Part shown: piece by piece, positions 2-37,118 of the stretch
How positions within the stretch are numbered: position 1 is the stretch's first letter
Layout: every line of letters begins with the position of its first letter
NCBI GenBank assembly: GCA_001724265.1
Contig: MEDY01000062.1
Location: 62,001 to 99,616, forward strand
Origin: Rhizaria sp. SCN 62-66
Taxonomy: Eukaryota
Length of the DNA: 37,616 nt
Direction of reading: 5' to 3'
Translations under genes and position numbers: made by a program
Notes under the pieces: model-generated
The model's database searches: none
The model's input: the letters and a program-made list of their open reading frames with translations, nothing else
What the model was told of the DNA's origin: nothing

Positions 2-2005
2 TTCCAATTCCAGCAGCAGCGCGCGGCGCCACAGATTGAGGCCGCGATCAAGACGCTCGAGGTCCAGCGCGACTCGATCGTCGTCCCACGCGCACGCGAG
101 GTCGAGGCCTACCACGCGCTTCAGGAGGAGCTCTGGCGGCTCCGGCATGAGATCCGCGTTGTCACCTCGAAGCCCGAGTTCGCGGAGCCCTTTTGCAACG
201 CGGGCCGCCTGGTGCGCATCTCCGCCGTCGTGCGCGGCGCCGGCGCGGGCTCCAGCGGTGCGTCGGTTCTCGACCCCGCCGCCACGGGCGCGATCGCCGG
301 CGCGCTGAAGTCGGACGGCGAGGCCGACGCCGTCGCCGTCACCGCCGCAGGCGCCGTGGACCCCAATGCGGGCAAGTCGTCCACGGTCACCCTGCGCGGC
401 GCTGCGGCGACGGCGCTGGACGTGATGCTGCGGCTGCCTGCGCTGCACGGCGCTCTGGAGCCCACGCGCTTCCGCGCTGGTATGACGGCTGACTACGCGA
501 CAGGCCTGCCGATGCCGATCATGGGCGCGACGCTGCCGTCGGACGCCGTGGCCGAGGGCGACCGCGACCCCAAGTCGGCTGGCGCGGCCACTGCGGCGTC
601 GTCTGACCCGCGCGTGACGCCGCAGGGCGCGCTTGAGATGGACTGGGGCTGGGGCGTGATTCTGGGCGTGCGCAAGAACGTCGCACTGCCGCCGCACGTG
701 CTGCACGGCGCCTACGAGCCCGTGGCACCCGTCGCGTTGCAGCGGCCCGGCCCCCGCGCGACGCCAGTGTCCGTGATGGGCACCGTCGTCGAGGTGCTGC
801 TGCCAGTGGACCCCGCATCGGTGCCTAAGGAGGCTCTGGCGCCCAAGATGGAGGCCGCGCGCGGCGAGATGCCCGGCAGTGCGATGCTGCACGCGGCGTC
901 ACTGCGCCCCGCACCTGCTGGCGTGATCCCCGAGTACGTCGTCGTGCCCGTGCTCATGTCCGCGTTCGCCGGGATGTCGACGTATCGCGTCAAGGTGCAC
1001 GACCGGCTGCAGGAGCGCTCGGGACGCGTGCTCATGGGTACGACGCTGCGCCAGATGCTCATGCGTACCAAGGCCGCCAACGCCGCCAACGCAGAGGCCG
1101 CTGCCGTGACGGCGGCTGCCACGGCTGCTGCGCCGGGCAATGACAAGAACCTCGAGACTGAGGCGATGGAGGACCCGCGCCCCGACGCGCTGCCGCTGCT
1201 GAAGCCGATGGAGTCGATGAAGATCAAGGGCGACGGGTTTCGTGCATTGCTCTCGCGCGTCGCCACACTCAAGCGCAAGGTCGCTGCGCACCCTGTGCAC
1301 ACTGCGGCCGACCGCGCGGACCTCATTGCGCTACATGCCAACAAGAACGCTCTCGCGAAGCAGGTCGACTGGCTGCGTGGCAAGCTCGCAGAGGTGTCAC
1401 AGGACTCCGGACTGCGCCAGACGCTGCAGCGCATGCGGCGCGTTCTGCGGACACTTGGGCACACGTCCGTGGACGACACGATCCAGACTAAGGGCCGCGT
1501 TGCGTGCGAGCTGTCTACGTGCGACGAGCTCGTCGGCTCTGAGCTCGTGTTCACGGGCGTGTTCAACGACCTCAACGTGGCGCAGATCTGCGCACTCTGC
1601 TCATGCATGGTTTTCGACGAGGCACAGGATGACTCGGTGCCGAAGCTCTCCGAGGAGCTTGCCGGCCCGCACCGCAAGCTGGTTGAGGTCGCCCGCGCAG
1701 TAGGCAAGGTGATTGTCGAAGCGCGTCTCCCGCTTGACTTGGAGAAGTTCGTGGCTTCCTTCAACCCGTTCATGATGGAGGTGCTACATGCGTGGGTCAA
1801 CGGCGCGCGCTTCGCCGACATTACCAAGATGACTGACGTGTTCGAAGGCACGATTATTCGCGTGATTCGCCGTCTGGAGGAGCTGCTGCGTCAGTTTGCC
1901 TCGGCCGCCAAGAGTGTTGGTAACACTGAGCTCGAGCAGAAGTTCCTCAAGTCTATTGAGAAGCTCAAGCGCGACATCGTCTTTGCCGCCTCACTTTACC
2001 TCTAA
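2..2005 (+). CDS. MTR4: Ski2-like exosome RNA helicase MTR4 (SKIV2L2/DOB1 family), 5'-truncated by the window: arch/KOW domain and DSHCT C-terminal domain
   Basis: The frame is open from base 2 (FQFQQQRAAPQIE...EPFCNAGRLVRI), well upstream of the ORF-track start at 212. MTR4 motifs: FQFQ, DWGWGVI, RRVLRTLG, KGRVACELSTCDEL, TDVFEGTIIRVIRRLEELLRQ, KRDIVFAASLYL. Stop TAA at 2003-2005. Confidence 0.95.
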   Translation, partial: FQFQQQRAAPQIEAAIKTLEVQRDSIVVPRAREVEAYHALQEELWRLRHEIRVVTSKPEFAEPFCNAGRLVRISAVVRGAGAGSSGASVLDPAATGAIAGALKSDGEADAVAVTAAGAVDPNAGKSSTVTLRGAAATALDVMLRLPALHGALEPTRFRAGMTADYATGLPMPIMGATLPSDAVAEGDRDPKSAGAATAASSDPRVTPQGALEMDWGWGVILGVRKNVALPPHVLHGAYEPVAPVALQRPGPRATPVSVMGTVVEVLLPVDPASVPKEALAPKMEAARGEMPGSAMLHAASLRPAPAGVIPEYVVVPVLMSAFAGMSTYRVKVHDRLQERSGRVLMGTTLRQMLMRTKAANAANAEAAAVTAAATAAAPGNDKNLETEAMEDPRPDALPLLKPMESMKIKGDGFRALLSRVATLKRKVAAHPVHTAADRADLIALHANKNALAKQVDWLRGKLAEVSQDSGLRQTLQRMRRVLRTLGHTSVDDTIQTKGRVACELSTCDELVGSELVFTGVFNDLNVAQICALCSCMVFDEAQDDSVPKLSEELAGPHRKLVEVARAVGKVIVEARLPLDLEKFVASFNPFMMEVLHAWVNGARFADITKMTDVFEGTIIRVIRRLEELLRQFASAAKSVGNTELEQKFLKSIEKLKRDIVFAASLYL

Positions 2006-2613: not shown

Positions 2614-4224
2614 ATGCGCAGTTTTCTTGCGACCCGTGCTCTCCCGCGCGTCTCAGCCGTGACTCGTGCGGCGACCGCCTCAGCTTCTGCTCTCGTCTCC
2701 GGCGCTGCTCCTTCGCGTACCATCGCCAATAAGGTCTATGACTCCGCTGCGGCTGCTGTCAAGGCTTCCGGCATTAAGGATGGCATGACTCTGCTTGCCG
2801 GTGGCTTCGGCATCTCCGGCATTCCTCAGACGTGCATCGAGGCGATCGAGGCGACTGGTGTCAAGGACCTCACGGTCGTATCCAACAACTGTGGCGTCGA
2901 GGACTGGGGCCTCGGCATCCTCCTCGGCCACAAGCGCATCCGCAAGATCATCGCGTCCTACGTCGGTGAGAACGCCGAGTTTGAGCGCCAGTACCTTGAG
3001 GGCGAGCTCGAGCTCGTTATGACCCCTCAGGGCACGCTCGCGGAGAAGCTCCGTGCCGGTGGCGCTGGTATCCCGGCCTTCTACACCCCCACTGCTGTGG
3101 GTACGATCATCCAGCAAGGCGGTTTTCCCGTCAAGTACAAGGGCAAGACGAAGCAGGTCGAGATTGCGTCGCGCCCCAAGGAGACCAAGGTCTTCGACGG
3201 CAAGGCGTACGTGATGGAGGAGAGCATCACCGGCGATGTCGCCATCGTCAAGGCCTGGCGCGCTGACCGCTTCGGCAACCTCCAGTTCCGTGGCACCGCG
3301 CGCAACTTCAACCCCGACGTCGCGACCGCGGGCCGCTTCACAATCGCCGAGGTCGACGAGATTGTCCCCGTCGGCATCATCGCGCCTGAGGACGTGCACC
3401 TCTCTGGCGGCTACATCCAGGCCGTCGTGCTCACGCAGGCGCCCAAGAAGATCGAGCGCCGCACGGTCGCCCCGCGCCCCGGCTCCCCCGCGGCCGCCGC
3501 CGCTGCGGGCGCCAAGGTCAAGGACCCCGCTGCCCAGGCCGTGCGCGAGCGCATCGCTTCCCGTGCGGCGCTTGAGGTGTCGAGCGAGATGAACGTCAAC
3601 CTCGGCATCGGCATGCCGACACTGATCCCAAAGATCATCCCGCAGTCCATGAACGTCATGTTCCAGTCCGAGAACGGCCTTCTGGGCATGGGCGACTACC
3701 CGTACGCGGGCGACGAGGACCCCGACCTCATCAACGCCGGCAAGGAGACCGTCACCGTGGTGCCCGGCGCCTCCATCTTCGCGTCCTCGCAGTCGTTCGC
3801 CATGATCCGCGGCATGCACCTCGACCTCACCATCCTCGGCGGCATGGAGGTGTCCCGGCGTGGCGACCTGGCGAACTGGATCATTCCCGGCAAGCTCGTC
3901 AAGGGTATGGGCGGCGCCATGGACCTCGTGTCCTGCGGCTCGCGTGTTGTCGTCACAATGGAGCACAACAACAAGCGCGGTGACTTCAAGATCCTCGAGC
4001 AGTGCTCGCTGCCGTTGACAGGCCCCGGCGTCGTCGACCTCATCATCACCGATATCGCTGTGTTCGAGGTCGACAAGCAGAACAACCAGCTCGTTCTCAT
4101 CGAGAAGCTCGACGACATCACCGTCGAGGAGGTTAAGACCCGCACTGGCTGCGCGTTCGTCGTCTCGCCCAACCTCTGCACATACCGCCAGTTTCCCAAG
4201 CAGGAGCCCGCCGCTGTGCTGTGA
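2614..4224 (+). CDS. OXCT1: Succinyl-CoA:3-oxoacid CoA-transferase (fused A+B subunits), mitochondrial precursor, 536 aa
   Basis: GGFGISGIP, VSNNCG, SYVGEN, PQGTLAEKLRAGGAGIPAFYT, ARNFN, NLGIGMP, catalytic QSENG, GDLANWIIPGKLVKGMGGAMDLV. The Arg/Ala/Ser-rich N-terminus lacks acidic residues, typical of a mitochondrial presequence. Intronless, stop TGA. Confidence 0.95.
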   Translation: MRSFLATRALPRVSAVTRAATASASALVSGAAPSRTIANKVYDSAAAAVKASGIKDGMTLLAGGFGISGIPQTCIEAIEATGVKDLTVVSNNCGVEDWGLGILLGHKRIRKIIASYVGENAEFERQYLEGELELVMTPQGTLAEKLRAGGAGIPAFYTPTAVGTIIQQGGFPVKYKGKTKQVEIASRPKETKVFDGKAYVMEESITGDVAIVKAWRADRFGNLQFRGTARNFNPDVATAGRFTIAEVDEIVPVGIIAPEDVHLSGGYIQAVVLTQAPKKIERRTVAPRPGSPAAAAAAGAKVKDPAAQAVRERIASRAALEVSSEMNVNLGIGMPTLIPKIIPQSMNVMFQSENGLLGMGDYPYAGDEDPDLINAGKETVTVVPGASIFASSQSFAMIRGMHLDLTILGGMEVSRRGDLANWIIPGKLVKGMGGAMDLVSCGSRVVVTMEHNNKRGDFKILEQCSLPLTGPGVVDLIITDIAVFEVDKQNNQLVLIEKLDDITVEEVKTRTGCAFVVSPNLCTYRQFPKQEPAAVL

Positions 4225-5225: not shown

Positions 5226-6093
5226 ATGAAGTTCTCGTACAAGTTTAGCAACTTGTGCGGTAGCGTGTACAAGGGCGGCAACCTCGTCTTCACCGCCGAC
5301 GGCAACTCCGTGCTCTCGCCCGTGGGGAACCGCATCACGGTCTTCGACCTCGTCAACCACACTTCCACAACGCTGCCGATTGAGAACCGGCGCAACATCG
5401 CGCGTCTCTGCCTGTCTCCCAACGGTAGCACGCTTCTTTCCGTCGACGAAGAGGGCCACGCGCTGATCATCAACCTGTTCAAGCGCGTGGTGCTGTCCGA
5501 GTTCCAGTTCCGCAAGGAGGTCCGCGATCTGCAGTTCTCGCCCGACGGCAAGTACATTGCCGTCACACACGGCGCCCACATCCAAGTCTGGCGCGCGCCC
5601 GCGCTCGTGACGCAGTTTCGCCCGCTGCTGCTGCACCGGACCTACACCGGGCATTACGACGACGTGTTGTGCCTCGCGTGGTCCCCAGACTCGCTCTTCT
5701 TTGTCTCCGGCTCCAAGGACAACACGGCACGGCTCTACTCCCTGCACCCGCTGCCTGGCTTCGTCCCGCTTGTGCTCAACGGCCACCACGCGCGCGTTGT
5801 GAACGTCTTCTTCGGCCAGGCTGACTCGAGCTACGCCGCCACCGACGTCACCTCGCAGCCCGGCTCGCAGATCTACACCGTCGGCAAGGACGGCGCCGTC
5901 TTCGTCTGGTAGTGGGCGCCGCGTGCCATGCCCGCCGTGCTCGCCTACGACGACGCGACGGGGCTCATTACCACGTCGTCGCTGGCGTCGCGCGCGCAGA
6001 AGGCGACGGCGCGCGAGCACTTGATCAACGCGGGCGTGCCTGTCGGCGAGCTCTCGACTTCTTCAGACTCCGAGTCATCGGACTCAAGCTCCA

Positions 6094-6124
<31 letters not shown>

Positions 6125-9100
6125 TAAGAACGAGGATGATGAGGAGGACGCTGAGAAGAAGTCCGCTGGCGACGACTCTGACAAGGATGATGACGACGAG
6201 GATGACAAGATGGCGCGCGCTATCCAGCGCGCCCGCTCTCGCGCCGTGCAGCAGCGGTCCCAGATCACTAAGCGCATGGCACGGCGCAACATGGTCGACG
6301 TCGAGGACCCGGTTGCGGTGTGGAACGCGCTGCCGTTCATCGCGCGCGGCACTTTCCGCGTCCTAAAGAAGAACTTCTGCAATCAGTCCGGTGCTTCGGT
6401 CGTCTGCGCGGCGCTGTATGGTACTGGCGCGGCGCTCAAGGCGTTTGGCGCCGAGCTCGATGAGACAAGCATCAAGGACAAGCAGGCTGCGACGGCGAAC
6501 CTCCTCGTCGTGGGCTTCGACAAGGGCACGTTTGCGCTGTACGAGATGCCGTCGTTCACGCACATTCACTCGCTGTCCATCTCGCAGGAGAAGATCTCCA
6601 CGGTCGCCATCAACGCCACGGGCGACTGGCTCGCTCTAGGCTCCGATTTCCTCGGCCAGCTCCTGGTTTGGGAGTGGCGCTCCGAGACGTACATCCTGAA
6701 GCAGCAGGCGCACTTCTACGATACCTCATGCTTGGCGTATTCCCCCGACGGCCAGCTCATGGTGACTGGTGGCGACGACGGCAAGGTCAAGATCTGGAAC
6801 ACCTCCACGGGCTTCTGCTTCGTGACCTTCTCCGACCACATCGGCCCCGTCACCGCAGTCGAGTTCTCCGGCACCGGCACCGTGGTGTTGTCCGCGGGCG
6901 CCGACGGCACCGTGCGCGCGTACGATCTCATCCGCTACCGCAACTTCCGCACGCTTGTCACACCGACTCCCGTGCAGTTCACGTCGCTTGCGGTCGACCC
7001 CTCGGGCGAGGTCGTGTGCGCGGGCGCCATGGACCCGTACGAGGTGTACGTGTGGTCGCTGCAGACGGGCAAGCTGCTCGACACGCTCACGGGCCACGAG
7101 GCGCCCGTCTCCGCGATGGCCTTTTCGGGCGCGCAGTCGGTGCTGGCGTCGGCGTCGTGGGACCACACCGTGCGCGTGTGGGACGTTTTTGCGGGCAAGG
7201 GCCAGGTGGACGCGTACGACCATCCGTCCGACGTGCTCGCAGTGGCGTACCGGCCCGACGGCCGCGAGATGGTCACGTCTTGTCTCGACGGACAGCTGTA
7301 CGTGTGGGACACATTCGAGGGCGAGCTTAAGTACGCCATCGACTGCAAACGTGACGTGCTGACGGGCCGCACGGGCGAAGACGCGCGGTCGTCGCTGCAG
7401 AAGGTCGCGTCAAACCACTTCACGTCGGTGTGCTACTCTGCAGACGGCAAGTCTGTCATCGCGGGCGGCAACTCTAAGTTTGTCTGCATCTACAATGTCG
7501 CGCAGAAGGTCATGGTGCGCCGCTTCGCCGTGTCCAACAACCTCTCGCTGGACGGCATGCTCGCCAAGTTCAACTCGCGCCACCAGCACAAGGCGTCCGG
7601 CGTGAACCTCAAGGAGGTCGACGCCGACGACTCGGACGGCGAGAATTACGGCGACCGCCGCCACAAGGAGCGCGGGCTTCCGGGCGCCAAGACGGGGCCT
7701 GACTTCTCGTCCCGGTCGACTCCGCCCGAGATCCGCACCAAGAGCGTGCGTTTCGCGCCCACGGGACTGCAGTGGGCTGCGTGCACCACAGAGGGCATCG
7801 TCATCTTCTCGCTTGACGACACGCTCGCGTTCGATCCCTCCGAGCTCGACCTGGACATCACACCCGAGAACGTGCTCATCGTGCTCGGCGAAGAGCACGC
7901 GTACGGCAAAGCGCTGCTCATGTCACTGGCCCTCAACGAGCGCTACCTCATCGACCGTGTGCTGCTCAGCACTCCGGTCTCCGAGGTGCCGCTCGTCGTG
8001 CGCGCGCTGCCGCTGCACCGCCTGCAGCGCGTCGTCGAAGTGCTGGGCTCTCTGGTCGACGCGTCGCGCCACCTGGGTTTTCTGCTTGTATGGGTGCAGG
8101 CGCTGCTCACGATCCACGGGCTCTACATCAAGCGCTCGGGCGCGCGCATGCTTGCCGCGTGCCGCGCGCTGCAGAAGACGCTGGTAGCCAAGCACAAGGA
8201 CATCAGCAAGCTCGCACAGGAGAACCAGTACATGCTGGCCTTCTCTGCGGGCGCGCCGCAGCAGCTGTCGCTGGAGGAGCTCAACGCGCGCTCGCAGCGC
8301 CGGCTGGAGCGGCAGCAGCGCGACGAGGACGAGCTGTCTGCGCGCATGACGGCCACGGCCGCGCCGTCGCTGGACGTCGCGCTCATGGGCGCGATCAACC
8401 TCGACGACCTCAACGATGACGACGCGTCCGACGAAGACGCCGAGGGCGACGCTGAGGACGACGGCGACGGCGACGGTGAGCACAAGACGAAGCGCGCGCG
8501 CACGGTGGACGGCAGCGCGCTGCAGCCCGTTGCACTGGGCGCGGACCGCCGTCGCCGCGCGGCGGGCAAGTGGGACGATGTACCCGGTGCGGAGGCCACG
8601 TTCGACCTGTCGGACGAGGATCTGGACGACCTGATGAACCAGGACGACATGTTCGACGGCTCTGCGCTTGCCAAGGAGCGCAAGAGCGCCGCCGACAAGA
8701 AGGCTCCCGCTGCCAAGGCTGGCAAGCCGACTGCTGCTGCTGGCAAGAAGGGCAAGACTGTATTGGGTGCGGACATGAGCGACGAGGAGGCCGAGATGCT
8801 CGAGTACAGCGGCATGAAGGACGACGACGAGGACGACGACGAGAGCGAGGACGACGACGAGGAGATCGTCGACTACCGCACGCGCAAGGTCCGCGAGGAG
8901 CGTGCGGCGCAGCAGACGGCGCGCGAGAAGCGCCTCCGCGGCGAAGACAAGCCCGCCAAGCAGCGCCTCACGGCCAAGGACGTCTTCGGCGACGAGGACG
9001 ACTTCCACGGCGGCATCCACGACTCCGACGAGGACGACGAGGAGGAGCGCGACCACTCGGGCGACGAGGCCGGCGGGTACCGCAAGAAGGGCTCGAAGAA

Positions 9101-9446
9101 GGATGTGTCATACTCGTGGGAGGAGCAGCGCAAGCAGCGCGAGCGCGCGTCCGTCTTCTCTGGCAAGCCCGGCCGCGACTCGGACGACGACGAGGACGGC
9201 GGCGGCGGGTTCGCCGAGTTTGCGCAAATCGACGCTGAGTTCCGCTCGCGCGAGGGCGGTCGTGGCCGTGGGCGCGGTGGCGCGGGCTCGCGTGGCCGCG
9301 GCGGAGGCCGTGGCGGCGGCCGTGGCGGCGGCCGTGGCGGTGGCGGTGGTCGCGGCGGTGGCCGCGGTGGCAGCGGTCGCGGCGGCGGCCGTGGCGGCGG
9401 CGGCCGTGGTAGCGGTCGTGGCGGTGGTCGCGGCGGCCGCGGTTGA
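5226..9446 (+). CDS. PWP2: PWP2/UTP1 WD40 SSU-processome protein, 1406 aa, read through one in-frame TAG (5910-5912)
   Basis: The N-terminus MKFSYKFSNLCGSVYKGGNLVFTADGNSVLSPVGNRITVFDL and the downstream GQLLVWEWRSETYILKQQAH, GTVRAYDLIRYRNFRT and Utp12-like C-terminal domain are all PWP2 hallmarks. ORFs 5226..5912 and 5928..9446 are in the same frame and separated only by TAG TGG GCG CCG CGT GCC. Stop TGA. Confidence 0.93.
5910..5912 (+). other. In-frame TAG in PWP2 (probable sense codon)
   Basis: GTC TTC GTC TGG TAG TGG GCG CCG = VFVW*WAP, at the end of a WD40 repeat. Confidence 0.85.
9255..9443 (+). repeat. RGG/GAR low-complexity coding repeat at the PWP2 C-terminus
   Basis: About 63 codons of GGRG-type repeats (GGC/GGT/CGT/CGC) ending at the TGA. 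Confidence 0.9.
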
Positions 9447-9977: not shown

Positions 9978-11878
9978 ATGTTAGACATTTCATTCGCTCT
10001 CATTAACACCCCAAATCCCAAGACTCCGCCAAACATCATTCGAGCTATTCTTTCTGTTCTCACAAATGTCGCAATACTCAACATCACCCGGGGCACGTGT
10101 AGCCCTAACTTAGTGATATTTCTAACACTTGCGGCAGCGTGCGTTTTTTACTTCTGGACAACGTCATATGTGGGCATTTCTTGCCTGACTTCTGAGTCAG
10201 CGGGCGAATCGGTACGATACATGCACCTTTCATATTTCGCGTCATGTACCACATTTTTGACACCCGACATAGTTCCTCACATACCACAGGAATTATGTTT
10301 ATTCTAATTTCCAGTCTGAGTTTGGCGGCGTGTGTATGATCTATCGGCTGTCCCCCGCCGCCCAGAACCACGCCCTCGTGCGCGCTCTCATGCCCTGCCC
10401 CGACGCCATCGGGGGCTTGTTTGACTCACACAGCGCTTCCGGCAGCGCCGCGTGCATCCAGGCCTTCCCCATGAAGTACTTCCGCAAGACGCTGCTGACG
10501 ATTGTCAAGAGTAAGAAGTCGTCTAACGAGCTGCGGCGGGTCTCTGTACTGCTCGACTTAGACACATACGAACAAGACCGCGTTAAAATGTACGTTTATG
10601 CCTCGCAGTCGCGGTGAACTGCACACGAAAAGATCGGATTGAAGTCCGACTACACAGGTTATGTGATATTAATTCTCACGTGTCTTGTTGAACTCTTGAT
10701 TTAGCCCGCTTACTGCCCCCGCGGACCTCGCACACCTCGACGCGCTGCGCACAATGTCCACTCTGCGCGCTCCAGAGAGCTGGATCTCGATCTCGTTCAG
10801 CTCCGGCGACGAGGCCTCGGCCTTTGCGACGGCACTGACCGAGGGCATTGACTCGCTGCGACAGGATCCGGCGCGCGCGCTGTTTGAGTTTGCCAGTCAG
10901 CGCGGGCGCTTCCGTGACCTGATGCCGCTGGGCCTGGCTGCGCTCGCCGTCTTGGCCGCATTCATGATGGCGCACATGAAGCGGCTTACCTTCTGCTCCG
11001 ACGACGACACGGTGAGCGTGGTTGTGGACGCTATGTTGCGTACGCTGAGCGAGCAGACGCTGCCGCTGCGCACGATCGAGCGCGTCGAGATAATTGGTAA
11101 GTTTAGACTATCTACGCCCACACCTCCTCATTTGTCCCATCTTGATTTGATCAGCCTTCGTTTTATTGTTGTATGTATTCGTGTATCTCCGCGGAATATA
11201 AAAAAGCTCACGTCACATCGAACTTTTCTTTGCAAACACTTGATTTGGTGACAGAAAATGTCAACAAGAAGAAGAAATCAACGTATTATCTCGCGCTTAT
11301 TTTCCGCCCCGACCCCGGCGACACCACTGTCGCCTCACTCAACGGCATCAAGCCGTACCGTGGCCCCACTGCTTCTCTTCCGTATATTGCCACGGATAGC
11401 TTGTTCGCATTGCCGCTGATGGACAACACGCAGTACCGCCACCGGCTTGTTACCGTCGCGGCGCGGCTGCAGTCGTGGCTGGCTCAGGCCGCGGCGCTGC
11501 GACGCGAGCGCGAATGGGAGCGCGCGCTGGCGGCCGGGGAGATTATTGCAACTGCTGCGGACTCTGTTGGCGGCGGGCGCTGTGTTGGGTGCGAGTCGAC
11601 CGAGGTGACGATGCTGTTCCTGCCGTGTCGCCACCTCATTACGTGTCATAGGTGCGTTATGTTTCGTCACTGTCACGCACACTTTCTTGCGGTTCATCGA
11701 CAGTTTTAAACGCTCTTACCCGTTTTTTTTTCCCCTGCCTTCTGATGCTCATATTCTTTATATTGCAATTATCATTTCTTTTTCCTTTCTGTTTCGTATC
11801 TGTAGTTGTTCGACAAAGTTTGATGTATGTCCAGCGTGCCAGCGCAAGATTGACAGTCGTTTGACGCTGTATACTTAA
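9978..11878 (+). CDS. Membrane-anchored C3HC4 RING-finger protein (putative E3 ligase), 5 exons, ~456 aa; start codon uncertain
   Basis: Exons 9978-10211, 10315-10589, 10705-11096, 11255-11651 and 11806-11878 join in phase (1371 nt). Splicing rebuilds CVGC-ESTEVTMLFLP-CRH-LITCHSC-STKFDV-CPAC-QRKIDSRLTLYT*, an IAP/MUL1-type C-terminal RING. Two hydrophobic segments (LVIFLTLAAACVFYFW; LMPLGLAALAVLAAFMM). Stop TAA. Confidence 0.8.
10212..10314 (+). other. Spliceosomal intron 1 of RING gene (103 nt)
   Basis: GTACGA...TTCTAATTTCCAG, AT-rich, phase 0, joins two open frames. Confidence 0.7.
10590..10704 (+). other. Spliceosomal intron 2 of RING gene (115 nt)
   Basis: GTACGT...CTTGATTTAG, phase 2, restores the frame into ORF 10754. 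Confidence 0.8.
11097..11254 (+). other. Spliceosomal intron 3 of RING gene (158 nt)
   Basis: GTAAGT...GGTGACAG, phase 1, AT-rich. Confidence 0.8.
11652..11805 (+). other. Spliceosomal intron 4 of RING gene (154 nt)
   Basis: GTGCGT...T-rich tract...CTGTAG, phase 2. Removal completes the RING motif. Confidence 0.9.
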
Positions 11879-12134: not shown

Positions 12135-13874
12135 TTAACGCTTCAAGAGTTGGCCAAATGGAGACCCGGCGCATACGGTTGCGTCCAACACACCGATGAA
12201 TTGCAAAAGACGAACAAGTGCGGAGTGCGCGGCGCCCATATCGCTACTCATAAAGCAGTCGTGCATGTCTACAAGCAAATCCGACCCGCCAGCGGCCACA
12301 AATGCCGCTGCGACAGGGTTCCATGAGGTTGCACCCTTAGGCACATTACGGTCTGGCACAGTGCCTGCGAGCACGATCATCGACCACATCACCAGCAACG
12401 TCTTCGCAAACCCATCGCCAGTCATATAGACGACGCCGCCGTTCGATGAAGAAACTCGCGGCAACAGCGCGAGTGCGCGGAGAAGAATCTGCACAACCTT
12501 GCGCTCAAGCAACAACGAGACAAGATCGGCAGCTTCCATGGGCGAAATTGTCACTGTGTAGACATCGTCAGAGTCATCGCCGTTCTTGTCGCAATTGGTC
12601 AAAACAGTTGATTTTGTACACATCCCCAGTAGCGCTGCCAAAAGTGACAGCATGCCAGTGTGCGCGGGCCTGCTCAACAGCTTACCGTTTGTCATGGTCG
12701 GCAGCAAAGAGCGTAAAATATAGTCCAATGTGCCACTTTCAAGAAACCACCGCACGTTCCCAGACCCTGCACGCGCTGCAATCGCATATACCGCCATCCA
12801 GTCTTCTAAAAATGAGCTATCGATGTTTCCAGAGACGAATGCCGCATTTTCAAGCGCTGCAAGGCGATTTGCAGTGAAAATCTCTGCGAGTGTAGCAGGT
12901 GGCAATAGCTCGGCGGAGCTTAAAAGTTTCAACAGGGGCCGGCGCGGAAACATATCATCGATAAGCAGTCGCAAAATTCGGTCAAACGTGTCACACTCCG
13001 CAAATTCAGCCAGTGCGGCGAGACGCGCCTCCATGTCAGTTGCTCTTGGGGAGACACTGCACTTCCCTCTGGCTTCGGAAGTGGGATCATCAAGGTCGTC
13101 GAGACCACCTTGCTGTTTTCTACAAACTGCATCTGCATTAGCTGTAAAAATGTCCCTAAGCGCCTCCATGCAGAGCGCTGATAGCTCTGAGTGGACCCAT
13201 CCTTGGGCTTCGGAGTCGTAGTGCAACAACGTAAGAGTTAGCGTTTCCTTCAGCACCAACAGCGCGGGCACCAACAGTGCCCACGGCAGCGCCGGCGCTT
13301 TATGCACCCACGCAGATATCGTTTTCAACGTCTGGCGATGCAGCTTGTGCAACTCTGCGGGCGCAAACCTCTCACTCACGTTTTCTGCTGCGTCCGCGCC
13401 CTAGGAGGAGAGTAAGTTGAGCTCATGAAGAAAGGCGCTGAGCATGTCAATAACGCCGTTCTCGGCTGCGTCAAGCAACTGCTGGCCTGGAGACAACGCA
13501 AAATGCAGAAGTACATCCAATGCGCGCATGATCGTTTTACACTCCCAGTTCCCGTTCACAATATTCTCACAGATCATCACAGGAAGGCCGGCAGCTGCAA
13601 GTGCATTAGATCCCTCAGTCGTATATGAGATGTTGATCATTACACGCAGTGCGGACGCCATGCGATTCAGATCATTTTGCGCACAATAGTATGCAAAATA
13701 TGCGCTGATGGCGTCTACTACATCGTGCATCATGCATATTTTGACAAGTTTGCGTTGGAGGAAAGCGCTCACACCGAAGAACACTTCTTCCAGTTCCATC
13801 ACGCCATCGTTCTCTGAAGCCAAGCTCTATAGCTCCGATAATGCAGAGAAAAAACCTTCATGCGTGAACGGCAT
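12135..13874 (-). CDS. Armadillo/HEAT-like alpha-helical repeat protein, ~579 aa, with in-frame TAG at 13401-13403 and (if the ATG at 13874 is used) at 13827-13829
   Basis: ORFs 13401..13823 and 12135..13379 are in frame and joined by TAG-GADAAEN. Upstream the frame reads MPFTHEGFFSALSEL*SLASEND from ATG 13874. ARM-like motifs: ALRVMINIS...NALAAAGLPVMI, AAENGVIDML, FLESGTLDYIL, FVAAGGSDLLVDM. Stop TAA. Confidence 0.65.
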
Positions 13875-14368: not shown

Positions 14369-17300
14369 TTAATCTCCAAGCAATGCGCCTGCAGCGTGCC
14401 TCTTACCTTCAAGTGCTGCAGCTGACTCCGCGGCAACGGCTGGCACGAGCGCGGCAGCCAATTCTTGAACACGATCCATGGCTGCGTGCAGCTCTACGGC
14501 GTGCACAGCCACGTGCTCACCACGCCTGCTCCGCAAAAGAGCGCTCAGCCGGCACATTTCATTCTCGATTCCTGCGGTTGCGCGTTGCAACGCGGTTAGC
14601 TTAGACCGTAGTGCAGCTTCGTCGGCCTCTGCGGCTGCCGCGGCCTTCGCAACGTCAAGGGGACCTGTCGATTGATCGGACTCGACTGATGCAGAGAGTT
14701 CGTGGACTGCAAGTGCAGCCTGCTTCTCATTCCATGCAAGCGCCAGCGCCGCCTCAATGGCACGTTCCTGGTCCTGCAGCTGTCGCTCATCCTCCAGCTC
14801 CGCAGCACTCATGGCGACGTCGCCGTAAAGAGGCCGTCCATAAGCCGCTGCAACGGCAGCAGCATCTGCAGCAGCGTCAGCGCCAAGTTCTGCCACCACA
14901 GCATCTACATCGGCATCACTAGGCGTTACGTCCTTTGGTGTGGGGGACGGTAGTGCAGCCCAAAGCAGACGACGAACGACGCGCGAAAGCGAGTCCCAAA
15001 CAGAGGCCTCCTGTTCAGTTGCCAGGCCGCGCGAGAGCATTTCCGCAGACGTTGCCGGCGCAGCCGCTGCTGTCGAGGAAACACCACGGTCGCGTAGAGC
15101 AACGCTATCCGGGTCATCTTTAGCAAGCAGCGGTGCCTTGTGAGGCTCCCCTTCAACCACAGCAACAAACTGACGGACGTGGTCAATGTTACCTGCAGTG
15201 CGGCGAACGATAGTCCATTGCTTCGCTTCACGTTGCAGTTGAGGCAAAGCAGTGCGCATCTCGGCCTTGGCCTGCAAAAGTGCGGCCTTCTCAGCCGCGG
15301 CGGCGCGCAGTGATGCAGCAGCGGTGCGGGCAGCAGCGCTCGCAGATTCGGCGTCGCGGCGCAGTGACAGCACTGTCAGCATGAGCGAGGGCAGCGTCCG
15401 CGCCCAGGGGGAGCAGAGAGCCTGGCGCAGGGATGCAGCATTGCCACTTTGTCCATCGTCAGAAGCACTGCCGTTGACCGTACTGCGCGCGACAAAAGAA
15501 GCGACCCCGGGAGCAGCAAGGGATGATACGGTAATAGAAGCCAATGCAGAACTGACGCGCACACTTTCACCAGAAAGCGCGGGCACGGAACCTGCAAGGG
15601 GCAAATGCACTCGTGCGCGCTCAGCCCGAACGGCAGCAACACGGTGTGAAGCAAGAGTGGCCGTTGTAGTGTGCGTGTGTGACAGTGCAATCACATGTGC
15701 TGCAGTGTCATTAGTAGCGGCCTCCTCATCGGCACGTAAAGCAAAAACCGTGCGTTCCGTAATCCGACGCACATGCGCGCGGAAAGAAGCCTCCACTGCC
15801 GCAGTAGACGCTGTGCTTGGTGTCGACGGTACAGCGCCCGGGCTAGTCGGAGCAATCGTAACAAGTGCAGTTGCAGCAACTGAGGCAGGATACATGGGGG
15901 TAGCCAGCCGTGATGCCGCAGAAGCTGCAGCAGCAGCAGCGGTGCCCGGACGCGACATCAGCGGGTGCGTTGCGCCTAGAGGCACATCAGTCAGTAAAGC
16001 TGCTAGCTGTGCTGCGAAACGACTCTGCACCGCAGTTTCATCGCCTGGTGTAGCTGCGTCGGCAGTCTTCGAAGATGAGGCTGAGAGTGGGGCCAACATT
16101 GCGCCTAACGCGCGCGCTAAGCCTGGGAAAGCTGCATCAACAGCGGTGAGACCCGAACCAACTTCAGCAGCAGCTGCCGCCTGCTGTCGCATCCCACCCG
16201 CGTTGATGACGCCGCGGGATCGCGGACGCGGTGCGCCCCCGCTGCTGGGGCGCATCGGAACACCGAAGGCATGCTCACCTGTCAGAGTTGCCGTCGCCAC
16301 ACCAGCACGCAGTAGCTGTTGAACAACCATAGCTGTGCGAGGCGACATGACACTAAGTGGCGCGCGTGAAGTGACCGCTAGTCCCGTGTCGGCGCTCCCA
16401 TCGGTGGGCAGACCTTCGGTAGAGTTCGTAGCTGCGTAGTCAAGGACGCGATTCACCGTCGCCTGCGCCGCATTGTTGACAGTGCGCTCAAGTTCCACTA
16501 GCGCAGTCGCCGCAGCAGCACGGAGCTCGCGCTGTGCGGCGCGGGCACCACGGAGTCGGTCGTGCCAGCGCGCTGCAGCCGCGCGCGCAGTGTCATCCGC
16601 GGCAGTGAACGACGCTGAGGTCGCAACGCGCAAAAGCGGACCAACGGTCAAGTCGCGCAGCGCGAGCGGGTACAAGTAGCCTCGAGTGCTCGAAGAGCCA
16701 GCAGCTAATGCTGCTGCAGCGCCAGGGAAGCCTAACACCTTATGAAGAGCAGCGGTCGATTGTACTGCAAAGTAGGATGACGCTGCTGCCTCAGCAGTTG
16801 CAGCAGCATATTCCGCGGCACCGCGGCGCAAGAGTGCCTTGGTAAGACGCACCGTGGGATGCGCAGGACTGAGCGTCGGATGAGTATTGTCAGCTGCAGG
16901 AAAAGCGAAGAGTGGAATCGTGGGCGCAATCGCTTGTGTGCGTGCGTGCGTGGTCGAGACGAGGCGCGCAAAACGAAGAAGAGAACGGGTGAACGCAGCT
17001 TTCGAGAGGGCGACCCACTCAACAGGATCAGTCGCGGATGCCAGGTGCGGTGTGCGCAACAACGCGGCCACCGTCATGGTTCCCGCGTCAGCTGCTGCAA
17101 GCGCAAGCTCAACAGCAGACACATCAGTTGCAGAATCTGCACGAGCAAGTGGAATAGAGGAAGCTGCAGTCAGCATCGTGACTAAGGCTGAACTCGGGGC
17201 AGCGGCGCGCGCGGCAGCAGGAGCAAGTGCACCGGACAAGGAGACGCGACTCAGAGTGGCCAGTGCCGCTGATGCTGCCTCAAGGGCAGCCATGTATGAC

Positions 17301-20300
17301 GCAATCAGGCTTGAGTCGATTGAGCGTAACAGCGTCGCAGCCAATGGTCCCGAATCACCTTGTGAGTATGCCGAAGTAGTCAGTGACGTGGGGCCAACTG
17401 CATGCAACACATCCGGCTGTGGTAAAGCGCCGAGAACTAGCATCGCGGACACAGCGATCAGCGGTAATGGCGGGCTTGTCCGGCTCTGGGTGGCCATACG
17501 TGTCGCACGTCGCAGTGCCTCGCTAGCTGCGATATCAAGATCTGTACCACATGCGGCCGATACAGCCTGGATGACTGTAGGCGCCACCGAAAAAACGGAT
17601 ATCGACATGGCCGACGAGGATGGCGTTGCAGTGTCTAAAAACCGCGATGCCCAAGAATTTTGCGCACGAGCTAAGACTGATGTACCAACGCTAGCTGGTT
17701 GAGCCCGCAATACAGGACGTGATGCTTGAATGGCTTTCGCGGTCGCTTCACAATTCGAAGTGGATGCAGAGACATATGTCCACGTGCGTCCGTAAAGGGA
17801 CAACAGAGAAGATGAAGCACCAGCTGTAACTGCAACAGGAAGCACTGACCCAGGTGCGCAAGACGCAACCATTGCCTGCGTGTCTAGCTCACCAAGATCA
17901 ACACCCTGAGCAGCACTGGAGAGAGCGGCAGCCGCTGCGTTGGGAGGATACGGTGTCACCCAGCTGCCCTTAGCGGGTGCTGTTGCTGCAACTCCAGCAG
18001 TAATACCACTCGGTGCACTGCCAGGTGCTGCCACTGCTGACGCAGCTAATAATGTAGCAAGCTCTGGGGTCACGACAGCAGGACCCGTAAGCACAGGCAT
18101 TGCGTCGGCGACCCAACCCCATGCGTCTCCTGAAGATGTGGCATGAGCGAGTACGAGAGCCTCTAGTGCTGCACGAGAAACTGCAACAGGCGCAGGTGCA
18201 TGTGACGACCCTGCGGCGGCAGGAAGTGCAAATGAGTGCGTGTGTAAACGCAGCGTAAAGGATGACTGCGTCACGGATAACAGCGAAAAGAGTGGGGGTG
18301 TGAGGGAGAGCCAGTTGCGCGATTGCAATCGGGGTGCAAGCGCCTTTGCGAGAGCATCACCATCGTTCGTGCAAGTGGGCACAGCAAGCGGTCGCAGCAC
18401 CGCAGCAAGTGCACCTTCCGTTGTAGAAAGACGGGACAGTTGCACTGCTTTGCCGCCCGCAACAGCCGCGGAGCGAGAGCGAAGCGCATAGTGATAAACG
18501 GCAGCTACAGCGCGGGGAGGGATAGGAGCGGAGGCGCGCGGACACAGAATTGCCGTCAGCGAGCATAGCTCCACGCCACCGCCATGGCTGACAGGCACGA
18601 CAGCGGCAGATAGGGGGAGTGGTTTCGTGTTGCAGTGCAGCGGAAACCAAGGACCAGTTGCAAAACCAGCACTTGCAGACAGCTGAGCACCACGGTTTAC
18701 CATGGGAGCCGCAAGTGCATTTGAGTAGACATGCGGCGACACTCCAGTAGCAAGCATAACTGCGTGGTTGTGCGTGGGCGTGGCTGCTGCCGCACGCAAC
18801 AGAAGTGGGGCAAAATAAGGCATGTTACGCCACATTGAGAGAGCTGCAGCAGCCGCAGCAGCGGCACCAGATGGAGCGGTTTCAGATGTCGACGCGCGAT
18901 GAAGCAACGACAAGAGAGTGCCTAGAGCAGCAGCGCTTTGGTTCCCAGCCCCACCAGACGAGCTACTAAAACTGGATGCGACACCTGAGCCAACCCTGCG
19001 CTGTTGAGCGCGAGAGCGCAAGCCACGGCTGGAGTCTTCCTCATCATCGTCTGGGTCAGCACCAGCCACAGTAGCCGCAGCTGCAAGCATGCCAGCAGCA
19101 GTTGCTGCGGTTTCATGTCCAAGTGCGGCAGAAAGCGCGGACAGTGCAGCCCGAACAGCTAGCTCGAGCGCGGCCGCCTGTGCGCCAGCGGGACCACAAG
19201 AGCGTGGGTGTACGAGCGACAGCGGAGGCGTCGCAGACATCGTTCCAGCGCCCATTACTATCCCCGCAGACCCGGCGGCCTTGCCTGCAACGGCAACGCT
19301 GACATCAGCAGCGGCTGCACCAGTCAAGTCGCTTGGTGATACTAACGAGCCCCATGCCGCAACCGTCACAGCGCACGCACGTACCTCAGCCTCGACAGCT
19401 GCCATCGCGCGCACAACATGTTTCGCTAATGCGCGCGCGCCTGCGGGCCCTGCCGATGCGGTCACGACATCTGGCAAACTCGCGAGGGCCATCATGTACG
19501 CAGCGTTTGGCGCCCAGCCGGGCGTCGCGGCGGATGACGCGAATGAGCAACGGGTTGTCGTCGCAAGTGCGCCTTCGGGGTGTGCACCAGGGGCAGCAGA
19601 GGCGCCCATAAGCCCGCCAGACGAACCGGTGCCGAGAGCACCGGCCCCAAGAACCGCGAGTGCAGACCCCGCGGGCAGCAAGCCGATACCGGCGCAAAGG
19701 TTGTGCGTGAGTGCTGCGAATGGCGATGTTGCGTCGCCGGTGCCACCACCGCCAGCGGCAAGAGCCCAGACAGTCGACACGGCACCGGCAGCGCCGCCAT
19801 TGACGCCGGAGCCGAGAGAGCTGGCACCGGACTCAGCGGCCACGGTGCCAGCGCCAGCAGCGGAGGCGAGCAGCGCACCTGCTCCAGCACCACCGCGTGT
19901 GATGATGTACAGTGAGTCGACGTCCGCCGTTGCAGGTAGCGCGGCGGACAGCGACGGTGGTAGTACGGCCAAGAGCGGTTCAATAGCGGCAGCGCTGAGT
20001 CGCATCGCGGTCAGCGAGCTCCCGACGGCAACTAGTAAGCGTTCGTGTGCTGCAGAGCCAGAATTTGCAGAGTTGCGTTGGCGCGTTACTGTCTCCATAG
20101 CGGGTGTACCCGCGTTGTTGCCGAGTCGCAACATTGCTGCCGTGCGGTTGCGGGGATTTGTTGTGGAGCCCGGGCCGGGCGACAACGGCAGAATAGGCCG
20201 CAATGGGGATAAGGACCGGCGCGAGGACGGAGACAGCGATGGAGACGTTTCACCTTCGGCCTGCTTGTTATTCGGCGCTGCAGCCGGTGCAGCGGATGTA

Positions 20301-23300
20301 GATGGTGGGCGCGGGAGAGCAGCAAGCCACGCCTCTGGCGCAGCTGCTGGGATGTGAGTCGATCCGCGACGTTGAAGGCTATGCGACGTGGAAACTGCGA
20401 AACCTTCGGGAACGCTAGCTCCTGCCGCGGCCGCAGTCTTAGCAGCGTCAGCGCGAGCGGCATCAGCAGCTGCAAGTGCATCAGCAACCACAGCAGCCGA
20501 GGCAGCGGACGCTGCAGCGCGGGATGCTAGCAGGTCGCAGCGCACGCGGCACGATTGACGCAAGCCTGCATCTGCAACAGAGCGTTGCATTAACGCAAGT
20601 GCAGCAGAGTCAGCGCGCAGATGCGATGCGGCTGCCAAAGCGAGCCCCAGCGAAGACGATGCCGCGGCGCGCAGCGGGTTAAGTGTTCGACGAACTGCCA
20701 GAGAAGCAGTCATTGAACCCATCGCATCTGCCACTGTAACTGTCGCGGGAGAGGGCAACGGCTCACGTAGAGGAGACGGGAATAGAGGCCACAGCGTCGA
20801 TGTGCTTAAAGCAGCACCATCTAACTGTCCGTCATTCGGGCGTATTGAATTGCCACCAACAGGCAGCGCAGAGAGGCCACCGGGAGTCAAAAGAGCTACC
20901 TCTTCAATGCCGGCAGGCATCGGCCAATGGGTCGGAACATCCACTGACGACAAACCGTCTCGCCTGTTGCAGAGACCTTCCAGTGTTTCCGCAATCGTCG
21001 CGGCGGAGCTCAGCGAAGCCCACGGCCCCTGTCCGCGACGTCCCACGCCGATGTGCAGCCCAGCATCTTCATCCTTGCTTTCCTCCTCATCGCGGCGCGT
21101 TGCAGAGCTAATAACATCGACAGCAGCCAAGACACCTGAGTCGGATTCAACAGCACCAGCAGCAGCCTCAGCAAGGGACGCAGCAGCAAGATCCATGACA
21201 GCGACCAAGGCGTCGCGCTTGGCAAGGAGCAGCGATACTAGCACGCGCAGTGCGGAAAGAGGCAACCCGGGGACCTGTGCCGCAACAACCTGCATTGCGG
21301 CGGCACTCGAAGCCGCGGCCGCCGGCAGTGGAAGCTGTGGGCGGCCGCCATGCAGTAACCGTGAGCGGCCAGACGCGGTCTTGTTGGGAATTGCACCAGC
21401 GACGTAAGCAGCAGCGCCCCACTCATCACCAACACCTGCAAGATGGAACAGTGGCGATGCAGCTGAGTTGGATGTCACGGAAGCAGCTGCAGCAACCTCC
21501 TGTGTCGGAATGACAGATTCGCTGCAGAGTGCAGGTCCGCACAGGCCATCATCATTGGCAACATCAGACACGTGGTCACCGCTCGCTGTACCATCACGGA
21601 GCGCCTCGAGAAGTGCGGGGGCCGGTGGAGGAGGAAGCGGAAGCCCATCAAGCAGCAATGTAACAAGCGCAGCAGCCAAGCCGGGAACCTCACCCGCGCC
21701 CGCCAGCGTACCTGCAGCGGCCGTTGTCACCGTAGCACGACCGCTTAGCTGGTGAACGTGCCAGCGCGAGGGTCCGACAGCAGCAGAGGCAGCACACGGG
21801 TCCGCGAATAGAGGCGGCACTGCCGAGAGCGCGCCCCATCCACCGGCAACAAGAGCAGCCATTTGCGCCTTCAGGAGCGGACCAGTAACCGTGTTGGCAC
21901 AGACCACATTCCCAGCAGCGCGAGCGTGTGCAACAACAGTCTCAACAAGTGCACCCTGTGCCAACATTGCAAGCACGCGTGCCGGGTCGGAAGATGCAGC
22001 AGCGGTACCAAAAGCAGCAGATGCAGATACACCGGCAGCAAAACTCCCATTTGCAAGCCAACCCTGAGCTGTGCGCGTAAGCACGCGAACCGCCGCTGGA
22101 GCCGTCGTGGCGTTACCCGCGGAAGCAGCGCGCGCAACAGCGTGGGCGAGACCTAAGCAGTCGAGCAGTAAGGCTCGCGCCTGACAATCCAGCTTAAGTT
22201 TGGCGGGGTGAAGCGCGGAAGCACGCGGGTCGGACAAGAGCGAAAACAACGCAGACGGCGAGGGCAAGCAGTAGATAAACTGAAGAGGTTCAAGACCGTC
22301 GCTCTCGGGCTATTCACGATCCGCAAGATACGCAGCCACCTCTAACACAGTCGGCTCACCGCTCGCAATCACCACCGAAGCACTCCCGTCAGCGGTGTCA
22401 CTGGTTGACTATGAAGTAGCCGCAAGGACAATGCGGTCGCGATTCGGCAGAATAAGTTGTGACCACTGATCGCGAACGTGAGCAGGGAGTTGCGTAAGTA
22501 AGCCAGCGTCGCGAGTCCAACTACTGCTGTTATTCGTTGCGCGGCGACGACCTGCCCGGCCCACCGTATCAGACTCGGAGGTGCTAATCAAGCCAGCACT
22601 TGCTTGCGAAAGAAACAACGCAAACGGCACTGTCAGTAGTGGTGACGCAGGGCTCGCAGTGAGCGCAGCGGCAGAGCTCGCTGGCACCGCCATCGCGAGA
22701 CCACCGGTAGGCACAGACGGTATCGGTGGCTTGTTTGAGTTTGAATGAGATGATGGCAGCGCAAACGGAATGGTTGAGAAACCTGTCGCACTTGCAAAGG
22801 TACCTTTGTTCGCAGAACAATCCTCATCGCCAGAAGAAAACTCCTCATCAAACACGCTGCGGGGAGTTTCACCTGTGGCTGCAGCGGTAAGTGCAGCGAC
22901 AACGGGTACACCATCCCCGCGGAGTCCAAACTGCCGAAGTGTTGCGCGACGCTCACGGCCCAAGATGTGCACCGCAAACCAAGCGTCGCCCTCTGCCTCG
23001 TCATCCGCACCAATTGTCGCAGCGATGTTCGAATCTTTACCCGAGTGGCCGCGACGGCGACGGATGCTCGAAGAGCTAAGACCTGCTGCAGCAGCTGCTG
23101 CTGCAGAGGAGGCTGTGCGTGAGACATTCAAGTGAACACCAAACGATGCGTTAGCGAGCGCGCGCGCCGAAGCGGCGCAAAGACGAGATCCAACAACACC
23201 GGTCGGCGCAGCTTCGGCCGAAAGCAGTTGGCGGCGCGGAATCAGTTGCTGTGGCGTCAATGCATCAAGGAAAGGGGAATACGCGCCCAACACACCATGG

Positions 23301-35300: not shown

Positions 35301-35899
35301 GCCGCCGCGCCCTGTGACAGAGCGCTGAAAGCGTGCGGGGGGCGCATAACGCCGGCGAGAGTGCGCGCGCGGTCGTTTTTGAACTCGCTCGCTTTCGCGA
35401 CGCTGCCCAGCGCGGCGGCGGCGGACGCGGCCGCGCGCGCAGCCTGCAGCTGTGCTAAATGAGCTGCGCCTGCTGAGGAGGCCTCGTCCGTTCCCGCGCC
35501 GGCACCAGCGCCTGTGGCAGTGCCGGCCGAGGACGCGGCGTTGGAAGCAAGCGGCGCAGACGCGCCCACAGCGCCTGTGGTGACAGCGGCTGCGTTAGTG
35601 GGGTCCGGGCTCGCGAACTCGGCGGCCTGAGCGGCGAGTTGGCGGTGATAACCGCGCAGCTCTGCCTGGAACGAGCGGGTGAAGTCGAGGTTCTGCGTCA
35701 GCTCGGCAAGCAGCGGGCTGCGTACGGGGTCATCCTCGTCCAGCAGCGCTGCCAGCGACGCAGGCTCCCAGTGGGATGCCATAGAAGGGAAAGAGGCGCC
35801 CGCAGACGATGCGCCGCCTGCGAGTCCAAGCGCCCCTTCGGCACCATCCTCAGCAGAGGGCTGGCGCGGGGGCTTCGGCGTATGTTTTTGAGTTGACAT
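14369..35899 (-). CDS. Giant CCDC162/DUF4549-like protein, ~7,176 aa, intronless, read through three in-frame TAGs (32597-32599, 22409-22411, 22310-22312)
   Basis: ORFs 32597..35923, 22409..32584 and 14369..22267 share one frame, with gaps of 12 and 141 nt that contain no TAA/TGA. First ATG is at 35899 (MSTQKH). Blocks I recognise as CCDC162-like: LKARLCRRW, RDYLDVRERVARL, DITLFLRWW, WVPYVRF...LDPLLRAEWALL, LLNFFRSVERRLTL, IMYTAALADLALLETQLIRLGS, DRWAIIVDLFEAEYAF...YEH...MSARPEID. C-terminal coiled coil. Stop TAA. Confidence 0.75.
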
Positions 35900-36425: not shown

Positions 36426-37118
36426 TTAACGCTGCATCTGGTTCTGCTCAGCGCGGATAGGCGCGGCCTTTGCGGGCTCGGTCTTTACCGTCTCCACTTT
36501 TTTGACAGGCTCAGCCTTCTTGGCGGGCTCAGCCTTCACTGCCGCAGCCTTAACAGGCGCGGCCGCAGGTGCCTTGGCCTTCACGGGCGCTGTCTTAACA
36601 GGAGCTGCAGCAGGGGCAGCCTTCACAGGCGCAGCGGCAGGAGCGGCCTTGACCGGCGCCGCCGCGGGGACAGCCTTGGCCTTGACTGGCGCTGCGGCAG
36701 GCGGCGCCTTCATCGCGGCCGCCTTGACAGGGGCCGCCGCCGCGGGCGGAGCTGCCTTGGACTTGATCGGAGCCGCCTCAGGGGCCTTCACAGGGGCGGC
36801 GGGGGTGGCGGGGGCAGGGGCCTTGGTCTTGGCCTGGATCTTGGCCATGACGGGCGCGGCCTTGACCTGCGCAGGGGCTGCAGCGGGGGCCTTGATGGGC
36901 GCGGTTTTGGCCTTCACGGGCTCGGCGGCTGGGGCAGCCTTGGCCTTGATCGGTTCGGCGGCCTTGACGGGGGCAGCTTTGACAGCTGCGGGTGCGGCGG
37001 GCTTGGGCTCGGCTTTGATGGGGGCCGCGGATTTGGCTTTGGGCGTGGCCGCGAACTGGTCGAGCGCGGCGGCGAATGTGGCGCAGTAGAACGCGAAGAG
37101 AATTAGGGCGAGACGCAT
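36426..37118 (-). CDS. Secreted Ala/Pro/Lys-rich repeat protein, 230 aa
   Basis: Signal peptide MRLALILFAFYCATFAAA followed by about 15 P[VI]K-containing units (e.g. AAAPVKAAP). Strongly biased codons (GCC/CCC/AAG/GTC). Stop TAA. Confidence 0.8.
   Translation of the reverse strand: MRLALILFAFYCATFAAALDQFAATPKAKSAAPIKAEPKPAAPAAVKAAPVKAAEPIKAKAAPAAEPVKAKTAPIKAPAAAPAQVKAAPVMAKIQAKTKAPAPATPAAPVKAPEAAPIKSKAAPPAAAAPVKAAAMKAPPAAAPVKAKAVPAAAPVKAAPAAAPVKAAPAAAPVKTAPVKAKAPAAAPVKAAAVKAEPAKKAEPVKKVETVKTEPAKAAPIRAEQNQMQR

Follow-up and report, generated by a model that had tools for sequence, protein, structure and literature searches.

An in-frame TAG in a PWP2/Utp1 gene is probably read as a sense codon

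Introduction

The gene for PWP2/Utp1, an essential subunit of the processome, carries a TAG triplet in its reading frame in the stretch of DNA analyzed here (37,616 nucleotides, referred to as the window). Does this triplet end the protein, is it removed or bypassed before or during translation, or is it read as an amino acid, and if so, which one? The locus was examined together with the other genes of the window, public protein records and the code variants described in the literature.

The PWP2 gene and its in-frame TAG

The PWP2/Utp1 open reading frame occupies positions 5226..9446 of the plus strand and comprises 1406 codons when it is read from the ATG at 5226 to the TGA at 9444-9446 with the TAG treated as open. 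In a phmmer search of PDB chains, the translated frame matched the human PWP2 chain (7mq8_LO, E=2e-228), yeast Utp1 (5wlc_LO, E=2e-227) and the Chaetomium PWP2 processome chain, with E-values of about 1e-227 to 1e-228 for the three. Residues 1-233 (E ~1e-52) and 424-1015/1050 (E ~1e-175) match the solved PWP2 chains in a single frame. A Pfam search returned WD40 repeats (PF00400, 185.8 bits) and a C-terminal Utp12 domain at residues 904-1006 (PF04003, 73.2 bits with a cut-off of 31.5). Collinear full-length similarity to PWP2 chains and the order of WD40 propellers followed by Utp12 place the protein within the PWP2 family.

The TAG lies at 5910..5912 of the plus strand, where the sequence reads ...GTC TTC GTC TGG TAG TGG GCG CCG..., and forms codon 229, which stands in the D position of a WD dipeptide (VFVW-TAG-WAP). 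When the frame is read with the TAG kept open, the surrounding peptide is IYTVGKDGAVFVW-X-WAPRAMP. The residues directly 3′ of the TAG still align with those of orthologs, W-X-W-A-P being matched to W-R-W-S-P (P0013), W-R-W-V-P (P0084) and W-K-W-T-E (P0028), which indicates that the TAG fills exactly one residue position.

The preliminary description of this DNA had placed the TAG in frame within a PWP2 gene whose two halves are intact and strongly biased in codon usage, and each part of that account was borne out. The single 1406-codon frame has homology on either side of the TAG, and the third-position GC content (GC3) does not change across it (0.895 in codons 1-228, 0.894 in codons 424-1015), with a value of 0.87 for the whole gene. 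The peptide context given there, IYTVGKDGAVFVW before the TAG and a W after it, was found as written, and the GT mentioned as a possible intron start is present at 5909-5910. The warning that termination at this TAG would remove most WD40 repeats was likewise supported. A stop at codon 229 would keep 228 of about 1015 conserved residues, less than one quarter of the conserved protein, and these first 228 residues on their own include neither the Utp12 domain nor the second propeller.

The protein is longer than its orthologs (1406 residues compared with 850-1000) because of an insert and a C-terminal extension. The insert, encoded at 5913-6494 of the plus strand, adds about 190 partly acidic residues (about residues 230-423), compared with about 50 at this place in yeast. 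The extension, encoded at 8271-9443 of the plus strand, contains about 390 residues and ends in a long RGG/GRG tail.

In-frame TAG codons across the window

The window is eukaryotic DNA with a GC content of 52-74%. Six long open reading frames, which take up most of the window and total 10,594 codons, were counted for in-frame stops. These are an Mtr4-type helicase represented by its C-terminal 667 residues (2..2005, plus strand), a succinyl-CoA:3-ketoacid CoA-transferase of 536 codons (2614..4224, plus strand), PWP2, an orphan frame of 579 codons termed P0002 (12135..13874, minus strand), a giant Ala/Ser/Thr/Gly-rich frame of 7176 codons (14369..35899, minus strand) and a frame of 230 codons (36426..37118, minus strand). 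Together they contain six in-frame TAG codons and neither TAA nor TGA, a density of 0.57 TAG per 1000 codons.

One of the six TAG codons is in PWP2, two are in the orphan P0002 and three are in the giant frame; the Mtr4-type helicase and the CoA-transferase have none. On the minus strand, those of the orphan are codon 16 at 13827..13829 (SEL-TAG-SLA) and codon 158 at 13401..13403 (LSS-TAG-GAD). Those of the giant frame, on the same strand, are codon 1101 at 32597..32599 (GE-TAG-AVI), codon 4497 at 22409..22411 (TS-TAG-STS) and codon 4530 at 22310..22312 (DRE-TAG-PES). All five contexts that had been listed earlier besides that of PWP2 are therefore present at TAG codons. The two off-frames of the same six open reading frames hold 565 stop triplets, made up of 93 TAG, 392 TGA and 80 TAA. 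With this off-frame TAG share as the expectation, the probability that six of six in-frame stops would all be TAG is P=2e-5. In the giant frame, 397 stop triplets occur in the two off-frames compared with three TAG and no TAA or TGA in frame.

Seven terminators could be examined, of which five are TAA, two are TGA and none is TAG. The six frames contribute four TAA and two TGA, and the fifth TAA ends a RING-finger gene at 10754..11877 of the plus strand. Among these ends, those of the Mtr4-type helicase (TAA, with a DSHCT domain that extends to the frame end), the CoA-transferase (TGA, with homologs covering up to 98%) and the RING-finger gene are backed by homolog or domain coverage, and the other four, including the TAA ends of the orphan and the giant frame, are open-frame ends. 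Several in-frame UAG codons without UAA or UGA, and the absence of UAG from the seven terminators, make up the pattern expected of a reassigned UAG, although the terminator sample is small and an organism with about 20% TAG stops would give none in seven about one time in five.

The TAG codons are unevenly placed. Five of the six belong to the two most weakly biased genes, the orphan and the giant frame, whose GC3 values are 0.57 and 0.60, and GC3 is 0.84-0.87 in the Mtr4-type, CoA-transferase and PWP2 genes.

Public protein records reflect the same TAG codons. P0246 consists of PWP2 residues 1-228, with W228 as its last residue, and is present on seven public contigs, as is the CoA-transferase P0124. 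Since the same PWP2 piece recurs on seven contigs, its TAG is reproducible and does not stem from one erroneous read. Two further records, P0245 (140 aa, beginning at a TTG read as Met) and P0244 (344 aa), correspond to the orphan pieces between and after its two TAG codons. Records that are cut at TAG codons indicate that gene calling used the standard or a bacterial code and that the proteome is fragmented at these places. If UAG is a sense codon, the proteome of the organism is mis-predicted under the standard code, with P0246, P0244 and P0245 as examples.

The restriction of in-frame stops to TAG in six of six cases, the absence of TAG from seven terminators, the recurrence on seven contigs and the low likelihood of an intron at the PWP2 site suggest that TAG is most likely a sense codon. 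In our assessment, UAG is probably translated in this organism, with UAA and UGA as the terminators, and codon 229 of PWP2 would be read as one amino acid to give a full-length processome subunit. Decoding would be carried out by a tRNA with the anticodon CUA, one anticodon change away from a normal tRNA, and termination by an eRF1 that no longer recognizes UAG. Both components would be encoded outside the window, and they are proposed here because the same arrangement has been put forward for other UAG reassignments. ARAGORN identified no tRNA gene in the 37.6-kb window, and an Rfam search of it gave no match either. Reassignments are usually proven by TAG codons on columns conserved for one amino acid, and the one TAG codon of the window for which homologs were found lies on a variable column. 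A rare TAG that occurs mostly in genes of weak codon bias is consistent with a codon that is decoded poorly or was captured recently.

Alternatives to full reassignment

Given that seven terminators were examined, the main variant beside full reassignment is an ambiguous code, in which UAG would be sense inside genes and a context-dependent terminator at some gene ends, as in some ciliates. TAG ends are possible elsewhere in the genome with a sample of this size, and the rarity of TAG, with six in 10,594 codons, would agree with such a code. However, TAG was found at none of the seven terminators and no feature of the window calls for this variant, which we consider unlikely.

Leaky or programmed readthrough under the standard code appears somewhat less likely again. 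Near-cognate tRNAs would bypass UAG, and a fraction of ribosomes would make the full-length protein. A rare TAG would also fit leaky stops that are tolerated in genes of weak expression, and the placement of five of the six in genes with GC3 of 0.57 and 0.60, as well as the lack of a suppressor tRNA in the ARAGORN search of the window, is in line with this explanation. The argument is weaker for PWP2, an essential gene with a GC3 of 0.87 whose 228-residue product lacks the second propeller and Utp12. Moreover, the codons directly 3′ of the six TAG codons (TGG, AGC, GGC, GCC, TCA and CCC) share no common motif. TGA is usually the leakiest stop in eukaryotes, yet TGA is absent from the six in-frame stops, which are TAG throughout.

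Loss of the PWP2 TAG by splicing, from a donor at or close to the GT at 5909, is highly improbable. The sequence G|GTAGTG at 5909 is donor-like, the organism has GT-AG introns, two of which were inferred in the RING-finger gene, and ortholog lengths differ just 3′ of the TAG. Nevertheless, only two intervals from the GT at 5909 to an AG keep the frame, ending at 6088 and 6469, and both of these, at 64-68% GC and with no pyrimidine tract, would change the conserved Trp to Cys. The introns of the RING-finger gene are 154-158 nt long with 39-40% GC, whereas the 120 nt around the PWP2 TAG are 70% GC. The W-A-P that follows the TAG aligns with orthologs, and four of the five other TAG codons have no GT in the preceding 12 bases or across the codon, with all five lying in open frames. 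The exception is codon 4530 of the giant frame, with a GTGAAT 5 nt ahead of its TAG. The concern over an intron at the GT at 5909 that had been raised thus finds no support, as far as sequence alone can tell.

Correction of the codon by A-to-I editing is about as improbable. In this explanation UAG would be a stop that is changed to UGG (Trp) in the mRNA, and the fact that all six in-frame stops are TAG would agree with it; sexual-stage editing of UAG occurs in some filamentous ascomycetes. However, Trp is the worst fit at the PWP2 column, being present in none of 120 orthologs and having a conditional probability of 0.005 at this one site, and PWP2 is required at every stage. In the PWP2 and CoA-transferase trees, the query groups with environmental sequences and not with ascomycetes.

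Finally, in-frame stops are a classic mark of pseudogenes, but damage or an assembly error with a working copy elsewhere is the least likely explanation of all, in agreement with the earlier judgment: all six stops are TAG (P=2e-5), the 1406-codon and 7176-codon frames contain no frameshift, codon bias is unchanged across the PWP2 TAG, the same truncated PWP2 product is on seven contigs, and a second intact PWP2, which together with an untranscribed locus here had been named as evidence against translation of the codon, showed no sign among public proteins of 773-2461 residues, where none was found above 60-65% identity in a set that includes the proteins of this organism.

The amino acid at codon 229

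The PWP2 site had been put forward as the best one for inferring the encoded amino acid, with Gln or Glu favored. Of the six TAG codons, homologs were found for this one alone, with P0002 searched against 1.84 billion representative proteins and the giant frame against Pfam. In this sense it is the best site by default, but it turned out to be close to uninformative. In the column of codon 229, 120 orthologs, mostly fungal, contained K in 72 sequences, R in 29, N in six, T in four, two each of D, E and S, one each of A and Q, and one gap; L did not occur. The yeast residue is E, in agreement with the earlier account, and Chaetomium has K. For human PWP2, to which a Q had been ascribed earlier, the chain gave no alignment over the TAG column in the two PDB-chain searches. 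HMMER aligns codon 229 to D or S after the W in other WD repeats, a variable place of surface type.

A likelihood test was performed by the method of Panek et al., in which 20 residues were tried at the TAG position (X) in an alignment of 35 sequences and 862 columns on a fixed IQ-TREE LG+G4 tree. The conditional probabilities at X were 0.29 for R, 0.21 for K, 0.066 for Q, 0.059 for E, 0.044 for S, 0.031 for L, 0.013 for Y and 0.005 for W. The ratio of Gln to Leu was therefore about 2:1 and that of Gln to Glu about 1.1:1, and R, K, Q, E, S and L were spread over less than 2.3 log units on this one variable column. The branch of the query in the PWP2 tree is 0.6 substitutions per site long. Because the column is variable and the branch is of this length, codon 229 carries almost no information on the residue.

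Individual assignments can be compared with these values. For glutamine, the Iotanema type of code (NCBI table 15), Q was found in one of 120 orthologs and ranked third after R and K on the one variable column. For leucine, the exLh type, L was found in none of 120 with a conditional probability of 0.031 on the same variable column. A crude test that compared the spread of TAG over the genes with the amino acid content of those genes placed L above E, Q and K by at most 2.4 log units. Its order is opposite to that of the likelihood test, and with the two combined, Q, E, L, K and S differ by no more than about one log unit.

Codon 229 cannot tell which amino acid UAG inserts, and for this reason the claim made for the PWP2 site adds little. 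Judged from the sequences compared, its column would mildly favor a polar residue. The preference for Gln or Glu was not upheld, as the orthologs mostly have K or R (Q in one and E in two of 120) and R and K come first in the likelihood test. The caution that the identity is not settled was well placed, with Q, E, S and L within about two log units of R. If UAG is reassigned, our own weighing, which is drawn mostly from precedent, would put Gln first as a tentative choice, followed by Leu, with the residues outside the four named here jointly about level with it, then by Glu somewhat lower and by Lys as the least favored of the four.

A reading of UAG as Lys or possibly Arg, recently captured and very rare in a lineage that had no named close relative in the searches, is improbable on the whole. 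K and R fit codon 229 best (72 and 29 of 120 orthologs; conditional probabilities of 0.21 and 0.29), and a tRNA-Lys with the anticodon CUU is one anticodon change from CUA. We know of no report of UAG as Lys or Arg in a nuclear code.

Relatives and comparison with known code variants

By name, the closest PWP2 relatives are those of chlorarachniophytes (Bigelowiella and Amorphochlora), which share about 55-61% identity across the N-terminal part that aligns, and over this part PWP2 is 55-65% identical to fungal and chlorarachniophyte orthologs as a group. Among shorter proteins compared over region 100-260, the closest relative is P0247, a protein of 218 aa on a 2607-nt contig that is 67% identical over the stretch. 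Its sequence (...AGSIVSL) breaks off about 10 residues short of the TAG column, and if it ends at a TAG, this relative may share the code. Of the other shorter relatives, P0249 loses homology before the column and P0248 has K there.

Nuclear code changes are rare outside ciliates, and changes of UAG only are rarer still. Among the papers returned by full-text searches, we could match no described UAG-only reassignment to a GC-rich organism outside the ciliates such as the present one. The window very probably represents a genuine, fairly uncommon code variant without a match to a case described in these papers. If this is true, the organism, a seemingly aerobic protist with GC-rich DNA in which UAG is a rare sense codon, would add another independent case and maybe represent an early stage of codon capture, which would bear on how reassignments start.

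Among the closest known systems is that of the rhizarian exLh, in which UAG encodes Leu, 384 of 384 in-frame stops in 71 genes are UAG and the gene ends are UAA in 56 cases and UGA in 15 (Panek et al. 2017, PMC5304391). The assignment to Leu was proven on 86 hyperconserved columns, UAG is rarest in highly expressed genes, and the eRF1 of exLh has Ala at the position of human Leu69 (PMC5304391). exLh resembles the present case in being a non-ciliate with only UAG in frame and with UAA and UGA ends, and the concentration of UAG in weakly biased genes of the window recalls its UAG distribution. The closest named relatives of the window PWP2, the chlorarachniophytes, are also rhizarian. However, UAG is far scarcer here, with six in 10,594 codons compared with 384 in the 71 exLh genes of that report, and the sole testable column is non-conserved and has L in none of 120 orthologs, in contrast to the 86 columns reported for Leu in exLh. 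Identity with exLh was considered and is not supported, the UAG densities being greatly different.

The same paper describes the fornicate Iotanema spirale as reading UAG as Gln, with scarce UAG codons (PMC5304391). Reassignment of UAG alone and the scarcity of the codon are shared with the window. Unlike Iotanema, the window encodes a mitochondrial-type CoA-transferase and a PWP2 that is 55-65% identical to fungal and chlorarachniophyte orthologs. From the type of CoA-transferase and the PWP2 identity, we infer that the organism has little resemblance to a fast-evolving, anaerobic metamonad.

Ciliate genomes are AT-rich. In one study of an uncultured oligohymenophorean ciliate, UAA reportedly encodes Lys and UAG reportedly encodes Glu. 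That the two codons are assigned different amino acids there (PMC10553269) shows that UAG can be uncoupled from UAA; both codons are sense in that ciliate, whereas UAA terminates here. In phyllopharyngean ciliates, UAG is Leu in three TARA taxa and Gln in Hartmannula and Trochilia, with UAA as the preferred stop (PMC11687900). There, as is probable for the window, UAG alone has turned into a sense codon, and it has done so repeatedly with different meanings, so that the meaning of UAG cannot be assumed. Unlike these ciliates with their preference for UAA, the present organism terminates with both UAA (five) and UGA (two), in DNA of 52-74% GC.

Blastocrithidia reads UAR as Glu and UGA as Trp in a GC-poor genome, where the in-frame reassigned codons are distributed non-randomly and tend to be avoided by genes of high expression (PMC12153298). 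The uneven placement described there is shared by the window, where TAG is mostly in genes of weak bias. Identity with Blastocrithidia was rejected on its three reassigned stops and GC-poor genome, compared with only TAG in frame and GC-rich DNA here.

Other features of the window

The RING-finger gene contains two GT-AG introns at 11097-11254 and 11652-11805, of 158 and 154 nt and 39-40% GC, with flanking exons of 61-64% GC. Its three exons join into a clean frame of 271 residues with a complete C3HC4 finger (zf-C3HC4_3) only after intron removal. The introns inferred in this gene indicate that the genome is not intron-free, though its large genes are uninterrupted.

For the orphan P0002, a search of 1.84 billion representative proteins returned only its own two fragments, and Pfam gave no match; neither half of the giant frame matched a Pfam family. 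A GC-rich frame of 93 codons at 10336-10617 of the plus strand, likewise without a Pfam match, may be a candidate exon of an unrecognized gene. The intervals 9447-10335 and 11878-12134 are richer in AT and lie between the converging plus-strand and minus-strand genes.
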